Shown piece by piece: positions 50,780-58,807 of a DNA stretch of 64,000 nt. How positions within the stretch are numbered: position 1 is the stretch's first letter; every line of letters starts with the position of its first letter. The position numbers and the translations under genes are program-made. Origin of the DNA: Acinetobacter phage AM24; sequence record KY000079.2; one strand, 5' to 3'. The notes under the pieces were generated by a model that worked only from the letters and a program-made list of their open reading frames with translations, was not told where the DNA came from and did no database searches.

Positions 50780-52024
50780 ATGGAACAACTTGTTTTAAAT
50801 ATTAATAAAGTCCCTGTTGTGGAAGCCTCTCAATTTAAATACTCAGACCATATTTTTGTTTCAGTTAATGGTCAATTTAAAAGAATGAAAAGAACTGATC
50901 TCCTTACCTTATTGAGTGCTGATGTTAAAGGTGAAAAAGGTGATAGAGGTCCGATTGGTTTACAAGGTAGGACTGGAGCTACAGGTGCAACTGGGGCCAC
51001 AGGAGCTACAGGTGCAACTGGAGATAAAGGTGTTAAGGGAGATCGTGGAGATGCTGGTTTCCGAGGATGGTCACCAGTCTTCAAATCTGTAGCTGACTCT
51101 GGATCTATCTACCTATACCTAAGTGATTGGGTTGGTGGTGAAAATACAAAACCTGATGTTCTAGGTTATATCTCACCTACAGGGATTGTAAACTATATCT
51201 CTGAGGGCGCAACTGCAATCAACACTGACTTTGCACCACAAATCAATGACCTTCAAACAAGTAAACTAGATGTTGGCTCTACAACTAGTGCTATCCCTGA
51301 AGGTTCAAACTTATATTATACAGATGCACGAGTTCGTGCTGCAACCCTTACAGGTCTCTCTACTGCGACCTCTACAGCTATTGCAGCGACTGATACTGTA
51401 TTAAGTGCATTTGGCAAGGCACAGGCTCAACTTAACCTTAAACAGAACAGTGCAAGCTTAGGAACAGATGTACAAGCTACAGTTCTATCTACTTACACTG
51501 TTGGTGGTAATACAGCAATTGCCAACACTGATACCATAGCAGCAGCTTTTGGTAAAGCTCAAGGGCAAATTAATGCTAGACAACTTTCAGCCAATCTTTC
51601 ATCTGATGTTCAGGCGTTAGTACTTTCAAGTTATGTTGTTGGTTCTAACACAGCTTTAGCCAATACAGATACTTTCATTGCTGCTCTTGGCAAGTTGCAA
51701 GGTCAGATCAATGCTAGAGAGGTAGCTGCCAATGTACCAGCAGATGTTAGGGCAACAGTTCTTACAGGTCTCTCTACAGCGACCTCTACAGCAATTACTG
51801 CTACAGATACTGTCTTGTCAGCCTTCGGGAAATTACAAGCCCAAGTCAACTTGAAACAAGACTCATCTACCCTAGCTGCAAATGTAAGATCAACAACCCT
51901 TACAGGTTTCTCTGCAACACCAAACTCAGCAGTAGTTGCAGCAGATACACTATTGGCAGCAATAGGAAAATTACAGGCTCAAGTTGATAGTTTATCTTCT
52001 AGAGTAACAGCACTAGGAGGATAA
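50780..52024 (+). CDS. collagen-like tail fibre protein
   Basis: 15 consecutive G-X-Y triplets (GEKGDRGPIGLQGRTGATGATGATGATGATGDKGVKGDRGDAGFRG), then about five 38-aa repeats of the form VLTGLSTATSTAI.ATDTVLSAFGKLQAQ.NLKQ. Confidence 0.6.
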   Translation: MEQLVLNINKVPVVEASQFKYSDHIFVSVNGQFKRMKRTDLLTLLSADVKGEKGDRGPIGLQGRTGATGATGATGATGATGDKGVKGDRGDAGFRGWSPVFKSVADSGSIYLYLSDWVGGENTKPDVLGYISPTGIVNYISEGATAINTDFAPQINDLQTSKLDVGSTTSAIPEGSNLYYTDARVRAATLTGLSTATSTAIAATDTVLSAFGKAQAQLNLKQNSASLGTDVQATVLSTYTVGGNTAIANTDTIAAAFGKAQGQINARQLSANLSSDVQALVLSSYVVGSNTALANTDTFIAALGKLQGQINAREVAANVPADVRATVLTGLSTATSTAITATDTVLSAFGKLQAQVNLKQDSSTLAANVRSTTLTGFSATPNSAVVAADTLLAAIGKLQAQVDSLSSRVTALGG

Positions 52025-53307: not shown

Positions 53308-53589
53308 ATGGCTGATGTTTTAGTATCAGGTATCAAAATTTCAGAAATGGACCTTGTTAATGAAGTTCAAGGTTCAGAAAAGGTCCCTACAGACCAAGTT
53401 GGTGATAAAGCTATTAGTATTGATCAAATACTTACTTATGTCAACAACAAAGTAAAACCAACTTGGGGAAACATCCAAGGTGATATTAATACACAGACTG
53501 ATTTAATCAACCTTATAACTAACCAAAATGCAGCCTTGATGAATGAGGTCGAACAACTTAAAATCAGGGTTTCACAACTAGAAACCTAA
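53308..53589 (+). CDS. small protein sharing the tail-fibre N-terminal module
   Basis: 93 aa. The N-terminus MADVLVSGIKISEMDL...PTDQVGD matches that of the 848-aa fibre (19770). A coiled-coil-like tail follows. Confidence 0.4.
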   Translation: MADVLVSGIKISEMDLVNEVQGSEKVPTDQVGDKAISIDQILTYVNNKVKPTWGNIQGDINTQTDLINLITNQNAALMNEVEQLKIRVSQLET

Positions 53590-53645: not shown

Positions 53646-56417
53646 TTATTGACAGTTTTCACATTCTTCATATCTCTTAATATCACCAGATCCTCGCATA
53701 GAGTAAATGTAATAAAGAGCTAAAATACCATCATTTATTAAAGCATACTTATGAACCTTCATAATATACTCTGGGGTGTCATTGCTTGTAAAGTACAAGT
53801 TGATTGATTGTTGTTGGTCAATATATTGTTGACGCTGAGCACACAAATCAAGATGCTTTAGCATATCAATTTCAAAGGCAGTTCGGAAAACATCTTTCTC
53901 ATGTTGAGTCAGCCAGTGTACATGTTGTACAGAACCCTTATGTTTATTGATGTCGTTTACTACATCTTCATTATAAACACCACGCTCCTTCATGATCTCC
54001 AGAAGGACTTTATTCACCCTCCAGATATCACCTCCAGCACTTTGCTTCACAAACACCATAGCAACATCTAGGCCAATACCTTCGGAAGCCCCTGCCATAA
54101 TCTCTGCTGTTGACTTTGTAGGTGGCATCATCATGGTTGTTGCATTACGGATACCTAGGTGAGCACAACCTTCAGGCATTCCTAATTCACGTGCTAACCA
54201 CTTAGAAGCTGCTAAGGTTTGATCTCGCATACCCTTAAAGATTTCTTCATTAAGCCAGAAACTCTCAAGGCTCCCTACAACAATTCTACGTTTTTGTAGT
54301 AGTGTGTGGAAACCTAATACACCTGTACCAACTGCACGGAATCTCTTGGTGAAGGCTAAGATTTTTCTAAATGCCAAGGCATCCTCTTTATCTTGAACCA
54401 TTCTCTTTTCCATAAACTCAATGTAGTCACTCACATTACAGTCTTGCATAATATGTGCAATAAATGCTAAGTGAGGACATCTTGATTTCCACTCATCGTA
54501 TAAGTCAAGGTTTAAGTTTAGAATTACACAAGAGAATGTATGCTTCTCATCACTACCAAGTAACACTTCTTGGCAATTCATTGTATTCAAACCATTGAAC
54601 ATCAACATGTTACGTTTTGGCTCAAGTGCACAATATGTATCATCAAATCTTCCTTGGTCGATCACTTCATCAACACATACAAATCTTTCAGCAGAACGTT
54701 GAGGTTTTCTTTCACTCCATTTTAGGCGGTGTGTTTTTAAACCTAACTGACTCAACTTAAAGAGACCTGTACTCGATACAAGAAGACGATAAGCATCTTG
54801 GCATTCATACAGTCCTTTATCACCTGTACCATTATTGAGAGGTAATTCTTTTAGACCACCTACATCCCTCAAGACAACCTTTGAAGAAACACCAAGTGTT
54901 TGTAACATCAATTGCACATCTTGTAAGAATGTCTTGTGAATGCTTACCACTTGGATAGATTCATTTTCACCATTACGAGCAATAGTTCCATCTGAATCTA
55001 GGAGTCCAGCAAACCATTCCAATCGGCTTTCAATAGTGTACTCAGATGTTGGTACAAAGAATTTATCCTTAAGCCCTTCACTGTGAGTAAGCTTAATACG
55101 ATCACCACCTTGAAGTCCTGACACTGAAGAAACGCAAGTTATATTTTCAAGTAACTCCTTCTTCTTACCATACAAGTATGTGTGTTTTTTACCTTTGTAT
55201 TCAAAACCATCACCAGTGAAGAATCCATTAGTGTAAGCATGTTCGAGGGCCTTGTCACCTAAAATAACTGGTAGATCAAATTTAGATAGTCGATCACCAG
55301 ACTTCAACTCGTAGGCACGTTTAATGACCTCATTGCCATCCTCACCAACAACCTTAAAGCGGTGATACTCTGTGCAATCTAATTCATACCCTGAATCAGT
55401 TACCACTTTAACTAACTTCTGATTTTCACCAGTTTTGATAATTGTCACTTCAGACCATTCAAAACCATTCCACACCTCGATCTGCTGTCCCTCAAGGTCA
55501 GAAATCGTTTGATATCCACTTTTAGTTAAGATTAACGTCTCAGGTGAAACACATAAGTTTGATGCCTTAGCAGTCATACCTGCATCTTTAAATGCCTGAG
55601 CTAAGTGGCGGTTCATTTCATCAATCTTAGTGAAGTAACCCTTACCACGCTGCATCTTGATAGCAATAGCTTTAGCTAATAGAGCAACTGCTTCTGGGTC
55701 ATCCTTGACTAACTTCTCAATGTACTCGTCCTTACATAACCATGCTGGGTTATTACTTTCAGGTCGTTTGAATAGGTACTTTAAAACTTCCTCAAACTCA
55801 GGATGTTCAATACTAACAGCATAAGATAAACTACCTCTACGGCTACCTTGAACAACCTCATCCATACAATTAATCAAGTCACGAATGACAGGCATCACCC
55901 CACCACCATAACCACCCCTAGGTAGTTTCTTACCTTTATAGGCCCAGTCATCAACTGAGTAAGATGTACCATGCGAATGTTTAGTCAAGATACCTGCTTC
56001 AGTCACACAATCGTAACGAGAGAACAAGTTGTCACCAACATAACCACCAGCACAACTTACTGTTGATCCCCTTTCAGGTAAACCACTGTTCGCCAATAAA
56101 GGAGTTGAACAAGACACATAACCATCCCAAAGTACGTCAAAAAACACTTCCTCCCAAGTTTTACCAGCCGTATAAGTATCCACATTCCACCAAGAAGGGT
56201 ACTTATCTGGTGCATGTTTAGCTAAAGTCTTAGCAATCATTTTATAGCGAGCTTTTACAGTCTCACCATTCCAAGAATACTTTTCAAAGAACAACTGAGT
56301 CCCACCAGTAGTAAACCATTTAGGGATCTCTCCATGTTCTTGTAGTTTTTTTCGAAGTTGACTGTAACTATCAACCCCGTATAATTCTAATGTTTCTAAA
56401 AAAGACAAAACAGCCAC
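53646..56417 (-). CDS. nrdA: ribonucleotide reductase class I alpha subunit, intein-containing
   Basis: Catalytic N-x-C-x-E (SNL-[intein]-CQE) is split by the intein. Also present: the radical-transfer YY pair (LALYYIYS), the C-terminal redox Cys pair (ECENC) and a SC(A)GG motif near the site equivalent to C225. No ATP-cone. Confidence 0.85.
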   Translation of the reverse strand: MAVLSFLETLELYGVDSYSQLRKKLQEHGEIPKWFTTGGTQLFFEKYSWNGETVKARYKMIAKTLAKHAPDKYPSWWNVDTYTAGKTWEEVFFDVLWDGYVSCSTPLLANSGLPERGSTVSCAGGYVGDNLFSRYDCVTEAGILTKHSHGTSYSVDDWAYKGKKLPRGGYGGGVMPVIRDLINCMDEVVQGSRRGSLSYAVSIEHPEFEEVLKYLFKRPESNNPAWLCKDEYIEKLVKDDPEAVALLAKAIAIKMQRGKGYFTKIDEMNRHLAQAFKDAGMTAKASNLCVSPETLILTKSGYQTISDLEGQQIEVWNGFEWSEVTIIKTGENQKLVKVVTDSGYELDCTEYHRFKVVGEDGNEVIKRAYELKSGDRLSKFDLPVILGDKALEHAYTNGFFTGDGFEYKGKKHTYLYGKKKELLENITCVSSVSGLQGGDRIKLTHSEGLKDKFFVPTSEYTIESRLEWFAGLLDSDGTIARNGENESIQVVSIHKTFLQDVQLMLQTLGVSSKVVLRDVGGLKELPLNNGTGDKGLYECQDAYRLLVSSTGLFKLSQLGLKTHRLKWSERKPQRSAERFVCVDEVIDQGRFDDTYCALEPKRNMLMFNGLNTMNCQEVLLGSDEKHTFSCVILNLNLDLYDEWKSRCPHLAFIAHIMQDCNVSDYIEFMEKRMVQDKEDALAFRKILAFTKRFRAVGTGVLGFHTLLQKRRIVVGSLESFWLNEEIFKGMRDQTLAASKWLARELGMPEGCAHLGIRNATTMMMPPTKSTAEIMAGASEGIGLDVAMVFVKQSAGGDIWRVNKVLLEIMKERGVYNEDVVNDINKHKGSVQHVHWLTQHEKDVFRTAFEIDMLKHLDLCAQRQQYIDQQQSINLYFTSNDTPEYIMKVHKYALINDGILALYYIYSMRGSGDIKRYEECENCQ
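54576..55553 (-). mobile_element. intein with LAGLIDADG homing-endonuclease domain (326 aa)
   Basis: Begins with Cys (CVSPETLIL) directly after SNL of the NxCxE motif and ends in ...TMN followed by Cys (+1). Two LAGLIDADG-like motifs are inside (LEHAYTNGFFTGDGF and LEWFAGLLDSDGTI). Removing it restores SNLCQEV. Confidence 0.7.
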
Positions 56418-56427
56418 AAATATCTCC

Positions 56428-57699
56428 TTACTTACTTCCTTGTAATCCTTTATTATCTTCTGAATCTTCCATGATCAGATTCAAGAGTTCTTCTTGTTCC
56501 TCTTGTTCTTTCTTCCTCATATTATTCCAAGCTTCTACAAACATAGCCTCAGACCAGTTACTTTCATACTCTCGGTTTTGACCCTTAGTGAAGAAATCTG
56601 GCATCTGGTAACCGTATGTATTTAAGTTAAACATCTTAGCCACTTTGGAATCCTTCTGAGTAACTTGGAACTCTTTAGGGATTTTATCTACAGGAACCTG
56701 CAAACGAGTCAAGAAAGTAAAGATTCGGAAGCGCACAAAATCAATGTACTCGGCTGTTGTATACCCATTGAGTGAACCTGAAGGGATTGCCATATCAATG
56801 ATTCGCTTCTCATGCTCTAACACGTAGTGGCAAGCTTGTAGTAACTTTCCAAACATTTCTTCATGCTCATGTAGAGGTTTTCCTACTTCATGGAAATAGG
56901 TGTTAAAATGTTCTGCTGCATAAATACCATGAAGGTCTTCATCTAGTGCACTTTGGTTAGCAATTTGTGCAATAACTTTAATTAAGTTAAAACCGTTTGT
57001 CTGGAAGCTTTTAAGGATGGCAAAGCTAGAGAACAACAAAGCTGTCTCTGTTAAAGAGAAGCACAAGCATGCAAGCATCTTGTTTTCATCTCGCATTAAC
57101 CCATCTAACCATTCCATACGTTCATTGAGCACAGGGTCATCAATGTAGGATGTGTAGTAATCATCGGTATCTAGGCCAAGTACAATGTTAATTTCATTGT
57201 ATGTTCGTGCATGGACCATCAACTCAATCATTGCTAAAGCAGAAGCACCAGCACGGGATTCATGTCGAGGGAATACTTTAATGAATAATCCATTCCAGAA
57301 TTCATCACCAACAATTAGTTCATACTGTAAGAATAAGTGTAGAACTGTTTTTACTGCATGTAGTTGCTCTTTAGTAAGCACATACTCAAGTTCCATCTGG
57401 TCATTCTTGACTTCCATTTCACTCTTGAACCACATCTGCTCTTCAAGCTGCTGGTCAGCAATCTCAAGAATCTTTGGGTACTTAATTTCATAGCCACTAT
57501 TGGGTGATGTAATACGGGTTTGCACTAACCCAGTTTTCTCTGAATTTAGTGTTTTGTTTATTGTCACATAAACGAATTTCCCTTCAGGGTTTTTCTCATC
57601 CTTGACATTGATAATAACCTTTCCAGTTGGTGGTGGTAAAAATCCAATCTTCTCAACCTGGCCTTCGGTTAAATCTACCTCAATATTGATTTTAGACAT
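56428..57699 (-). CDS. nrdB: ribonucleotide reductase class I beta subunit
   Basis: Di-iron ligand motifs of ferritin-like R2 (ELMVHARTY, DEDLHGIY, FSLTETALLFSSFA) and an N-terminal extension of about 45 aa. Lies immediately upstream of nrdA. Confidence 0.75.
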   Translation of the reverse strand: MSKINIEVDLTEGQVEKIGFLPPPTGKVIINVKDEKNPEGKFVYVTINKTLNSEKTGLVQTRITSPNSGYEIKYPKILEIADQQLEEQMWFKSEMEVKNDQMELEYVLTKEQLHAVKTVLHLFLQYELIVGDEFWNGLFIKVFPRHESRAGASALAMIELMVHARTYNEINIVLGLDTDDYYTSYIDDPVLNERMEWLDGLMRDENKMLACLCFSLTETALLFSSFAILKSFQTNGFNLIKVIAQIANQSALDEDLHGIYAAEHFNTYFHEVGKPLHEHEEMFGKLLQACHYVLEHEKRIIDMAIPSGSLNGYTTAEYIDFVRFRIFTFLTRLQVPVDKIPKEFQVTQKDSKVAKMFNLNTYGYQMPDFFTKGQNREYESNWSEAMFVEAWNNMRKKEQEEQEELLNLIMEDSEDNKGLQGSK

Positions 57700-58255: not shown

Positions 58256-58677
58256 ATAGTCTCCTTATGAATTGTTTACATAATATGTAGGGATGTTATC
58301 TGGCACCACTACAAGTTGAAGGTATTGTAGTATGAATTAAATTTATAAAACACCCCACACCTTTAGAAATTCTTAAAAGTTTACCTTGTTTGGTTGTTTG
58401 TTAAACACAACACAAAATAAAGGTAGAACCTAGAGGTTATCTTTAAATTTGTCCCTAGGGGAAAATCCTTCAGGGAATAAAAAAGGACACCACTTAAAGT
58501 AGTGCCCTAAAAAGTACCCTAGGAAATATTACTATAATAACCCTGAGTCAAATTTTTTAAGTATCCCTTATATTTATAATACCCCAAAAAGTAATTTTGT
58601 CAAGCTAAAACCATGCCAACTAATCATTGGAAATTTCGATTAAAAATTAAATATTAGTAAATTCTGTAAAAATACAT

Positions 58678-58760
58678 CAGACCGATTTGATCAAATGCAT
58701 TTTTTAAAAGTGAAAATAACCAGTTCAAAATGGTTTTAACCAGACCGATTTGATCAAATG
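58678..58760. repeat. direct repeats (iteron-like), 2 x 20 bp with palindromic core TTTGATCAAA
   Basis: CAGACCGATTTGATCAAATG occurs at 58678-58697 and again at 58741-58760 (63-bp periodicity). Lies in a 620-bp AT-rich intergenic region upstream of the replication-gene cluster. Confidence 0.55.
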
Positions 58761-58807
58761 TTCTAATAAGGTAATAAATAGGGTTTTAAATATGTTTCTT
58801 TTTTAAG

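Follow-up and report, generated by a model that had tools for sequence, protein, structure and literature searches.

An intein with a LAGLIDADG endonuclease domain at the active-site cysteine of the class-Id-like ribonucleotide reductase of Acinetobacter phage AM24, with signs of recent homing

We analysed a 64,000-nucleotide (nt) stretch of DNA from Acinetobacter phage AM24 (sequence record KY000079.2), hereafter called the window, in which nrdA, the gene for the alpha subunit of ribonucleotide reductase (RNR), carries an in-frame insert between SNL and CQE. Sequence analysis confirmed the insert as an intein that contains a LAGLIDADG homing endonuclease and directly precedes the cysteine of the NxCxE motif. 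The profile matches, the unbroken alignment of the exteins and a natural empty allele support this identification far beyond chance. The insert is very probably a standard class-1 intein, for which both splicing and cleavage are predicted. Here, we describe its anatomy, its modelled fold and family membership, the insertion site that it shares with its relatives, an allele that lacks it and a population signature of recent spread.

Organization of the nrdA precursor

The precursor is encoded by an open reading frame (ORF) of 2772 nt. Within its 923 amino acids (aa), the insert begins with CVSPETLIL at residue 289 and ends with NTMN at residues 611–614, after which CQEV follows from residue 615. 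On re-translation and indexing, these limits agreed exactly with those of the initial annotation, which had placed a 326-aa insert at 54576–55553, starting with CVSPETLIL and ending TMN-C, within the same 923-aa NrdA ORF on the minus strand. The parts of the precursor are as follows.

53646..56417, minus strand: nrdA precursor ORF (N-extein, intein and C-extein), 923 aa, GTG as start codon; the coordinates include the stop codon
55554..56417, minus strand: N-extein, precursor residues 1–288, ending ...KASNL; continuous with the C-extein on 6dqw and TIGR02510
54576..55553, minus strand: intein, 326 aa, precursor residues 289–614; delimited by profiles, AlphaFold, Foldseek and the absence of 978 nt from phage Mithridates
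53649..54575, minus strand: C-extein, precursor residues 615–923; the first codon (54573–54575) is Cys+1 and the end carries the CENC pair

In-silico excision of the insert yielded a 597-aa protein reading ...KASNLCQEVLL... (junction stretch of the spliced form: ...TAKASNLCQEVLLG...), which reproduced the SNLCQEV match to NLCxE claimed in the initial annotation. The extein-only protein matched the TIGR02510 profile in one stretch (residues 19–596 on profile positions 2–558 of 560), and the precursor matched it in two pieces, the second of which resumed at residue 615. The closest solved alpha structures were 6dqw and 6dqx (E=6e-70, residues 89–596), and the alignment crossed the junction. As had been proposed from the sequence, the junction of the extein-only protein fell on NLCxE, with ASNLCQE lying over ASNLCSE of 6dqw. 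The Pfam matches in the precursor were Ribonuc_red_lgN, Ribonuc_red_lgC, LAGLIDADG_3 and, below its gathering score, Intein_splicing. The cysteine of NLCxE is the thiyl-radical residue of RNR (C439 in E. coli, with N437 and E441), and the insertion point corresponds to the RNR 'thiyl-radical site' class of intein alleles listed in InBase.

Splicing and endonuclease domains of the intein

Alignment with homologs and indexing located all of the intein blocks A, B, F and G on which the initial annotation had let its reading depend, and both of the LAGLIDADG motifs that it had noted.

55515..55553, minus strand: block A, CVSPETLILTKSG, with the TIGR01445 match starting at residue 289; Cys1 (Cys289) is the predicted first nucleophile
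55350..55382, minus strand: block B, LDCTEYHRFKV, with T-x-x-H (Thr61 and His64), placed by homolog alignment and indexing
55203..55238, minus strand: first LAGLIDADG motif, AYTNGFFTGDGF, intein residues 106–117, with the predicted catalytic Asp115; it heads helix 106–115 of the model
54984..55022, minus strand: second LAGLIDADG motif, LEWFAGLLDSDGT, intein residues 178–190, with the predicted catalytic Asp188; PF14528 match and model helix 174–188
54576..54644, minus strand: blocks F and G, DDTYCALEPKRNMLMF-NGLNTMN, with Cys at F:4, Thr at G:5, Met at G:6 and Asn326 at G:7

Block A reads CVSPETLILT, and the homologs keep CV(A/S/T)(P/G)ET. In block B, CTEYH occupies intein residues 60–64, and T-x-(Y/W)-H was kept in 8/8 aligned homologs; the functional assignment of Thr B:7 and His B:10 comes from the literature (PMC4031507). 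The F:4 Cys of block F is Cys308 of the intein. Block G closes with the C-terminal Asn614, which is followed by Cys615, and the homologs have N or Q followed by C at these positions. The comparison with intein profiles suggested in the initial annotation was borne out by TIGR01445 (intein_Nterm), whose match started exactly at residue 289 and, with 36.9 bits (E=5e-9), exceeded the cutoff of 24.5 bits, and by the fold comparison described below.

The intein fold was predicted with AlphaFold from 17 sequences, which gave a confident model (pLDDT 92.6, pTM 0.91). In this model, the insert adopts the Hint splicing fold and contains the duplicated alpha-beta-beta-alpha-beta-beta core of LAGLIDADG enzymes, with the order H106–115, E, E, H129–137, E, E, then H174–188, E, E, H207–218, E, E (H, helix; E, strand). 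The top PDB matches of the model in Foldseek were the solved intein endonucleases PI-SceI, TliVMA and PI-PfuI, which were matched over both domains (E about 1e-13 to 1e-11), followed by I-DmoI (E about 2e-5), which matched the endonuclease domain, and the Ssp DnaB mini-intein, which matched the splicing domain. The modelled intein shares with PI-SceI, PI-PfuI and TliVMA the Hint and two-motif LAGLIDADG architecture, at a query-normalised TM-score of 0.55–0.64, but is only 12–17% identical to them, and they reside in other host proteins and are about 100–130 residues longer. From this size difference, we infer that the phage intein, which is compact, has only reduced additional DNA-recognition elements or lacks them.

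The cores of the two LAGLIDADG motifs are GFFTGDG (Asp115) and AGLLDSDG (Asp188). PF14528 (LAGLIDADG_3) matched intein residues 177–229 with 44.6 bits against a cutoff of 22.5. The endonuclease domain was 45–51% identical to those of the ICP1 and PG07 homologs, for which the identity of the splicing domain was 53–60%.

The presence of Cys at F:4 and Thr at G:5, both in the window and in most homologs, bears on the splicing pathway. Splicing through these two residues in a class-3-like or redox-controlled manner, rather than by the plain class-1 route, would be compatible with the expected position of Cys1, the F:4 Cys and Cys+1, all of which would sit near the splicing centre, and disulfide-switch inteins figure among the references of PMC4031507. 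We nevertheless judge such a pathway very improbable. Cys1 occurs without variation throughout the family, B:12 has Phe or Tyr where the class-3 W-C-T triplet would have Trp, Cys is simply the second commonest residue at F:4 (PMC4031507), and Asp occupies F:4 in the SPbeta-type homolog. Because Cys1, the future radical residue Cys+1 and a third Cys at F:4 occur together, the intein might also be pictured, beyond a neutral parasite, as a redox- or condition-sensitive gate that delays the maturation of the phage RNR until conditions in the infected cell are suitable. This idea is drawn by analogy with conditional-splicing inteins and with the Aquifex R2 intein, which has been reported to improve cofactor loading (PMC8772380), and we regard it as very unlikely for AM24. 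A standard class-1 intein is the reading that we carry forward.

Distribution of the intein family and its insertion site

A tblastn search with the insert detected homologous inteins in 339 phage records, including 115 Rheinheimera phages and 92 Vibrio phages; further matches came from SPbeta-like Bacillus, Staphylococcus and Corynebacterium phages. The ICP1 record is annotated as an 'intein-containing ... precursor', and an 'intein' mature peptide is annotated in the T5-like phage SelmaRatti and in Caulobacter phage Karma. The insertion point was identical in 7/7 sampled phages (ICP1, SelmaRatti, Karma, PG07, phi3Ts, Sau-RP15 and C3PO), which share the pattern (S/T)NL↓C...(N/Q)↓C-x-E, where the arrows mark the ends of the intein. 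The same site was used in those of the metagenomic proteins P0001–P0031 that have a junction, including class II enzymes with TNPC. Full-length identity to the inteins of ICP1, PG07, SelmaRatti, phi3Ts and the metagenomic proteins P0001–P0008 was 25–59%. In the phage collection searched by tblastn, no intein more than 60% identical, as a possible donor, was found outside the phage group of the window.

Members of the family with reduced or altered endonuclease domains were also observed. In the annotated Karma intein (L010), which lies at the same insertion site, the catalytic acids of both motifs are replaced by Ala, and its endonuclease domain is 18% identical to that of the window; it resembles an endonuclease in decay, near the end of the homing cycle. 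Three IMG/VR sequences, L023 and L024 (contigs of about 223 kb) and L025, gave matches of about 130–137 aa and are apparently mini-inteins without an endonuclease domain. A full-length copy of the intein family, 31% identical, was present in a giant-virus metagenome-assembled genome in IMG/VR (L020).

Two of these homologs were compared with the window in detail. The ICP1 intein and that of the window lie at the identical point (SSNL↓C...↓CQE in ICP1), are homologous over their full length (50.6% identity) and have Asp at the catalytic positions of both LAGLIDADG motifs. They differ in that the ICP1 intein resides in a long class Ia NrdA and ends with Gly-Gln, whereas the intein of the window ends with Met-Asn. 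The NrdE intein of the SPbeta-type phage phi3Ts occupies the same point (FSNL↓C...TGN↓CSE), but is only 25% identical, is 385 aa long, has Asp at F:4 and resides in a class Ib NrdE. The bnrdE intein of SPbeta-type Bacillus prophages likewise lies directly before the radical cysteine.

The initial annotation had laid emphasis on the precise position of the intein. This emphasis is reduced by the occurrence of the family in hundreds of phages and by the fact that no other point in RNRs receives inteins as often as the SNL↓C-type site, termed the 'thiyl radical active site' (Dassa et al. 2009, PMC2677866). The ICP1 NrdA intein has been termed 'fairly commonplace' (Seed et al. 2011, PMC3037004). 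The ICP1 protein gp203 is the LAGLIDADG endonuclease encoded by this intein, which is described as spliced out of NrdA, and at least 8 of 20 LAGLIDADG endonucleases sit inside nrdA (Barth et al. 2023, PMC10448857). An intein at this canonical RNR site was already known, with near-identical annotated copies in GenBank, and the AM24 nrdA intein leaves the current understanding of inteins or RNRs unchanged.

Relatives of AM24 and an intein-free allele

By sequence, AM24 belongs with the Acinetobacter baumannii myophages of the YMC13/03/R2096–Bestia group. Its nrdA DNA was 94.7–96.1% identical to that of Bestia, YMC13/03/R2096, P577, Herod and Ab15, and all five carried the intein at the same site, with the same length of 326 aa and 98.2–98.8% aa identity. 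The differences from the window were few, such as Ser3 versus Ala3 in some alleles. The 2772-nt ORF was intact in six independent phage genomes. The coding-sequence note of YMC13/03/R2096 (KM672662) lists intein_Nterm and LAGLIDADG-like domains; in a review of these Acinetobacter phages (PMC11126041), the intein is not mentioned.

The nrdA of phage Mithridates, a member of the same cluster, was exactly 1794 nt long and represented a precise empty site without the 978 nt of the intein. The Mithridates-type site reads GCGAAAGCTTCTAATTTG on one side of the junction and TGTCAGGAAGTG on the other; in an alternative extent, the junction lies between …ACAGCGAAAGCTTCTAATTTG and TGTCAGGAAGTGTTA…. As for further alleles of the group, a search of IMG/VR with the intein protein returned YMC13/03/R2096 itself as the only close relative, a degenerate DNA pattern of the empty site gave no matches, and a 26-nt conserved N-extein anchor had no match in metagenome_contigs or genome_contigs.

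Two metagenome contigs from ENA (ERZ15185583 and ERZ28614953), L026 (751–3539) and L027 (820–3591), contained a related phage nrdA with the same intein. No difference was seen between their first 2100 nt, and a single strain, assembled twice, may underlie both; L026 has an extra 17-nt insertion and very low coverage.

The window was also mosaic downstream of the intein. Compared with the five relatives, the 3' part of its C-extein was about 10% diverged from all of them. Between 53200 and 54300, the 3' 650 nt or so of the C-extein and a convergent ORF (53308–53589) were 11–22% diverged from Bestia, whereas the divergence outside this interval was about 2%. The resulting patch of about 1 kb ends about 280 nt from the C-terminal junction of the intein, and its window-specific variants were absent from 6/6 other alleles.

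Divergence of the intein and its junctions

The intein differed by 0.0–1.4% among the intein-bearing alleles, whereas in the same genomes the divergence reached 6.5% in the N-extein and 10% in the C-extein. Between L027 and YMC13/03/R2096 (YMC13), for example, there were 3 nt differences in the intein versus 54 and 41 nt in the exteins. Within the clade, synonymous variable codons numbered 8/326 in the intein versus 130/597 in the exteins, suggesting that the ancestor of the intein is much more recent than that of the surrounding gene. None of the 10 aa polymorphisms of the intein fell in the LAGLIDADG motifs or in blocks B, F and G; the only polymorphism in a splicing block was Ala/Ser at position 3 of block A, where Ala is usual in the homologs.

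At the junctions, two short patches distinguished the alleles.

55554..55574, minus strand: 21-nt patch adjoining the N-junction, in which 7/7 wobble positions differ between haplotypes A and B; putative gene-conversion tract
54570..54575, minus strand: first two C-extein codons, TGC CAA versus TGT CAG; putative co-converted flank or half homing site

Among the relatives, haplotype A of the upstream patch was common to the window and Bestia only, and haplotype B was found in YMC13, P577, Herod, Ab15, L027 and the intein-free Mithridates. On the downstream side, TGC CAA was present in every intein-containing allele and TGT CAG in the empty Mithridates allele. As a result, the window and Mithridates differed at nine consecutive synonymous codons with the insertion point at their centre. 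Runs of this length arose in 12/200,000 permutations.

Taken together, the low divergence of the intein, the junction patches and the presence/absence polymorphism indicate recent homing, as far as allele comparison can tell. They lend indirect support to the proposal of the initial annotation that the intein is an active selfish element, with cleavage predicted. The simplest reading is that a haplotype A–intein–TGCCAA donor invaded a haplotype B–TGTCAG recipient by gene conversion, with little or no co-conversion upstream and co-conversion of a few bases downstream. The direction of conversion was not polarised by further alleles in the searches of IMG/VR, metagenome_contigs and genome_contigs, and the intein-free outgroup Ab1-TPeters (69% identity) was uninformative, with haplotype A at 4/7 wobble sites and haplotype B at 3/7. 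The two junction haplotypes might instead record two independent invasions from different donors, which we likewise hold to be very unlikely.

Two other origins of the junction pattern were considered. Immunity of the empty allele to the endonuclease as the source of the nine-codon run was largely rejected for the upstream seven codons, which four intein-containing alleles share with Mithridates in the form of the same haplotype; it may apply to the two downstream codons. Loss of the intein from Mithridates by precise deletion is unlikely, since its +2 and +5 bases differ from those of every intein-containing allele. With TGTCAG in place of TGCCAA, Mithridates would not be a simple deletion of the present intein.

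Weighing of splicing and endonuclease activity

Several observations weigh against an intein that is active in both splicing and homing. PF14890 (Intein_splicing) matched with 27.1 bits, under its gathering score of 35.8 (E=4e-6), and the penultimate residue at G:6, Met613, is not the usual His. In L026 and L027, intein codon 54 is changed from TCA to TGA (opal), and nrdA is called as products of 341 aa and 553 aa. Six of the seven known phages of the group carry the intein, Mithridates being the single intein-free allele found. The variable codons of the intein comprised 10 nonsynonymous and 8 synonymous (22 and 130 in the exteins), which suggests relaxed constraint, and the low divergence of the intein could also stem from ordinary recombination.

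The Met at G:6 and the TGA codon in L026 and L027, together with the non-essential nature of T4 nrdA (PMC3037004), would be compatible with an intein defective in splicing, in which case nrdA would effectively be a pseudogene and the phage would use the host RNR. This is extremely improbable. The ORF has stayed intact in the six independent genomes, and the exteins, in which synonymous variable codons outnumber nonsynonymous ones by 130 to 22, show strong purifying selection, which would be unexpected for a dead gene and lends indirect support to splicing. His was found at G:6 in none of the sampled family members, which end in TGQ, TGN or AGN, yet the family is kept in hundreds of phages. Moreover, functional inteins with a residue other than His at G:6 are documented, and the viral CIV RNR intein splices with a C-terminal Gln (PMC4031507). 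Given these reports and the absence of His from the family, Met at G:6 is not disqualifying.

The alternative that the intein splices but its endonuclease is inactive, with inheritance that is vertical or by general recombination late in the homing cycle, bears on the codon ratios and on the distribution of the intein. The excess of nonsynonymous changes relative to the exteins, the small number of targets left in a group in which six of seven phages already carry the intein, the degenerate Karma homolog and the endonuclease-free mini-inteins in the family all agree with it. In contrast, the window retains the two catalytic Asp residues and the two LAGLIDADG motifs, in which no polymorphism fell, and the domain, by its identity to the ICP1 and PG07 homologs, is nearly as conserved as the splicing domain. 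The divergence of the intein is 5- to 20-fold under that of the exteins, and the junction patches fit repair initiated by an endonuclease. On balance, an inactive endonuclease seems unlikely, and a class-1 intein that splices and homes is the reading that we prefer.

Proposed pathway of splicing and homing

In the pathway that we propose, the 923-aa precursor would be unable to form the RNR active site. Cys289 (Cys1 of the intein) would undergo an N–S acyl shift, Cys615 (+1) would attack the thioester to form a branched intermediate, cyclization of Asn614 would free the intein, and an S–N shift would join Leu288 to Cys615, giving a 597-aa class-Id-like NrdA with SNLCQE intact. Cys615 would act twice, as a nucleophile during splicing and then, in the mature enzyme, as the catalytic radical site. 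During co-infection, the freed intein endonuclease, with Asp115 and Asp188, would cut intein-free nrdA at a junction-spanning site of about 20–30 bp, and repair off the intein-containing genome would copy the intein and a few flanking bases, resulting in homing. The splicing, the cleavage activity and the target sequence in this scheme are predictions from the sequence.

The host enzyme and its operon

The spliced NrdA was compared with known RNR classes. The domains PF02867 and PF00317 were found in the alpha subunit, together with the C-terminal Cys pair CENC, and the ATP cone PF03477 was not found in it by Pfam scan. The TIGR02510 score of the extein-only protein was 404 bits, under the equivalog cutoff of 602, indicating a relative and not an equivalog. 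Immediately upstream of nrdA, in the same operon, lies the gene for the beta subunit, the partner of the spliced NrdA.

56428..57699, minus strand: nrdB, RNR beta subunit, 423 aa, PF00268

The spacer between nrdB and nrdA is 10 nt, and the order of beta followed by alpha is that of most NrdAi operons. In the PDB, the body of NrdB came closest to 8dq4 and 6cwo, both of them class Id beta subunits; membership of class Id would go with a Mn(IV)/Mn(III) cofactor in this subunit. Its N-terminal extension of about 70 aa had no Pfam or NCBIfam match, and these profiles detected no ATP cone in it. Compared with 6dqw-type class Id alpha subunits, the alpha subunit of the window is likewise short and cone-less, with ASNLC(S/Q)E, the Cys pair and the beta–alpha gene order. 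At 597 aa, its spliced form falls between the median lengths of NrdAi (564 aa) and NrdAk (620 aa) (PMC9669993). Judged by sequence, the host enzyme is closest to a short, cone-less class Id RNR (NrdAi/Ak-like), not to class Ia or Ib. The initial annotation had framed the comparison in terms of class Ia/Ib, a frame that the class Id structures nearest to both subunits do not favour, and the nrdA of the relatives is labelled 'class Ia' or 'NrdZ' in GenBank. That annotation had also described nrdA as an essential gene of nucleotide metabolism; its nature as an RNR gene was upheld, but phage RNRs are mostly auxiliary and not strictly essential (PMC3037004).

Other features were noted around the nrd operon. 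In Bestia, a gene annotated as an HNH homing endonuclease/DNA-binding protein (L002, 8006–8614) lies just past the end of the alignment (window position of about 58646), and no ORF of at least 80 aa was listed as an equivalent at about 58650–58800 of the window. The free-standing HNH gene near the nrd operon thus looks like a presence/absence difference between Bestia and the window. On the other side, the ORF at 50780–52024 (plus strand) encodes a putative tail fibre with a collagen-like G-x-y stretch, in which GAT (Gly-Ala-Thr) occurs five times in a row, and behind it several units of about 35 aa repeated in tandem (...T(V/A)LS..GK(A/L)Q(A/G)Q(I/L/V)N...); it is a tail fibre in the Bestia and Mithridates annotations.

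Significance

The practical value of the analysis lies in correct annotation: the 923-aa product is a precursor, and the mature NrdA is predicted to be a class-Id-like protein of 597 aa. The presence/absence polymorphism and the pattern of putative conversion tracts are new here and add modest value to a known type of intein. The group of near-identical phages comprises six genomes with the intein, an empty allele and a nonsense allele, and represents a convenient natural system for homing, in which co-infection could serve to determine the homing rate, the length of co-conversion tracts and target-site variation. As these phages are of interest for phage therapy, homing would shape the inheritance of markers in mixed infections.

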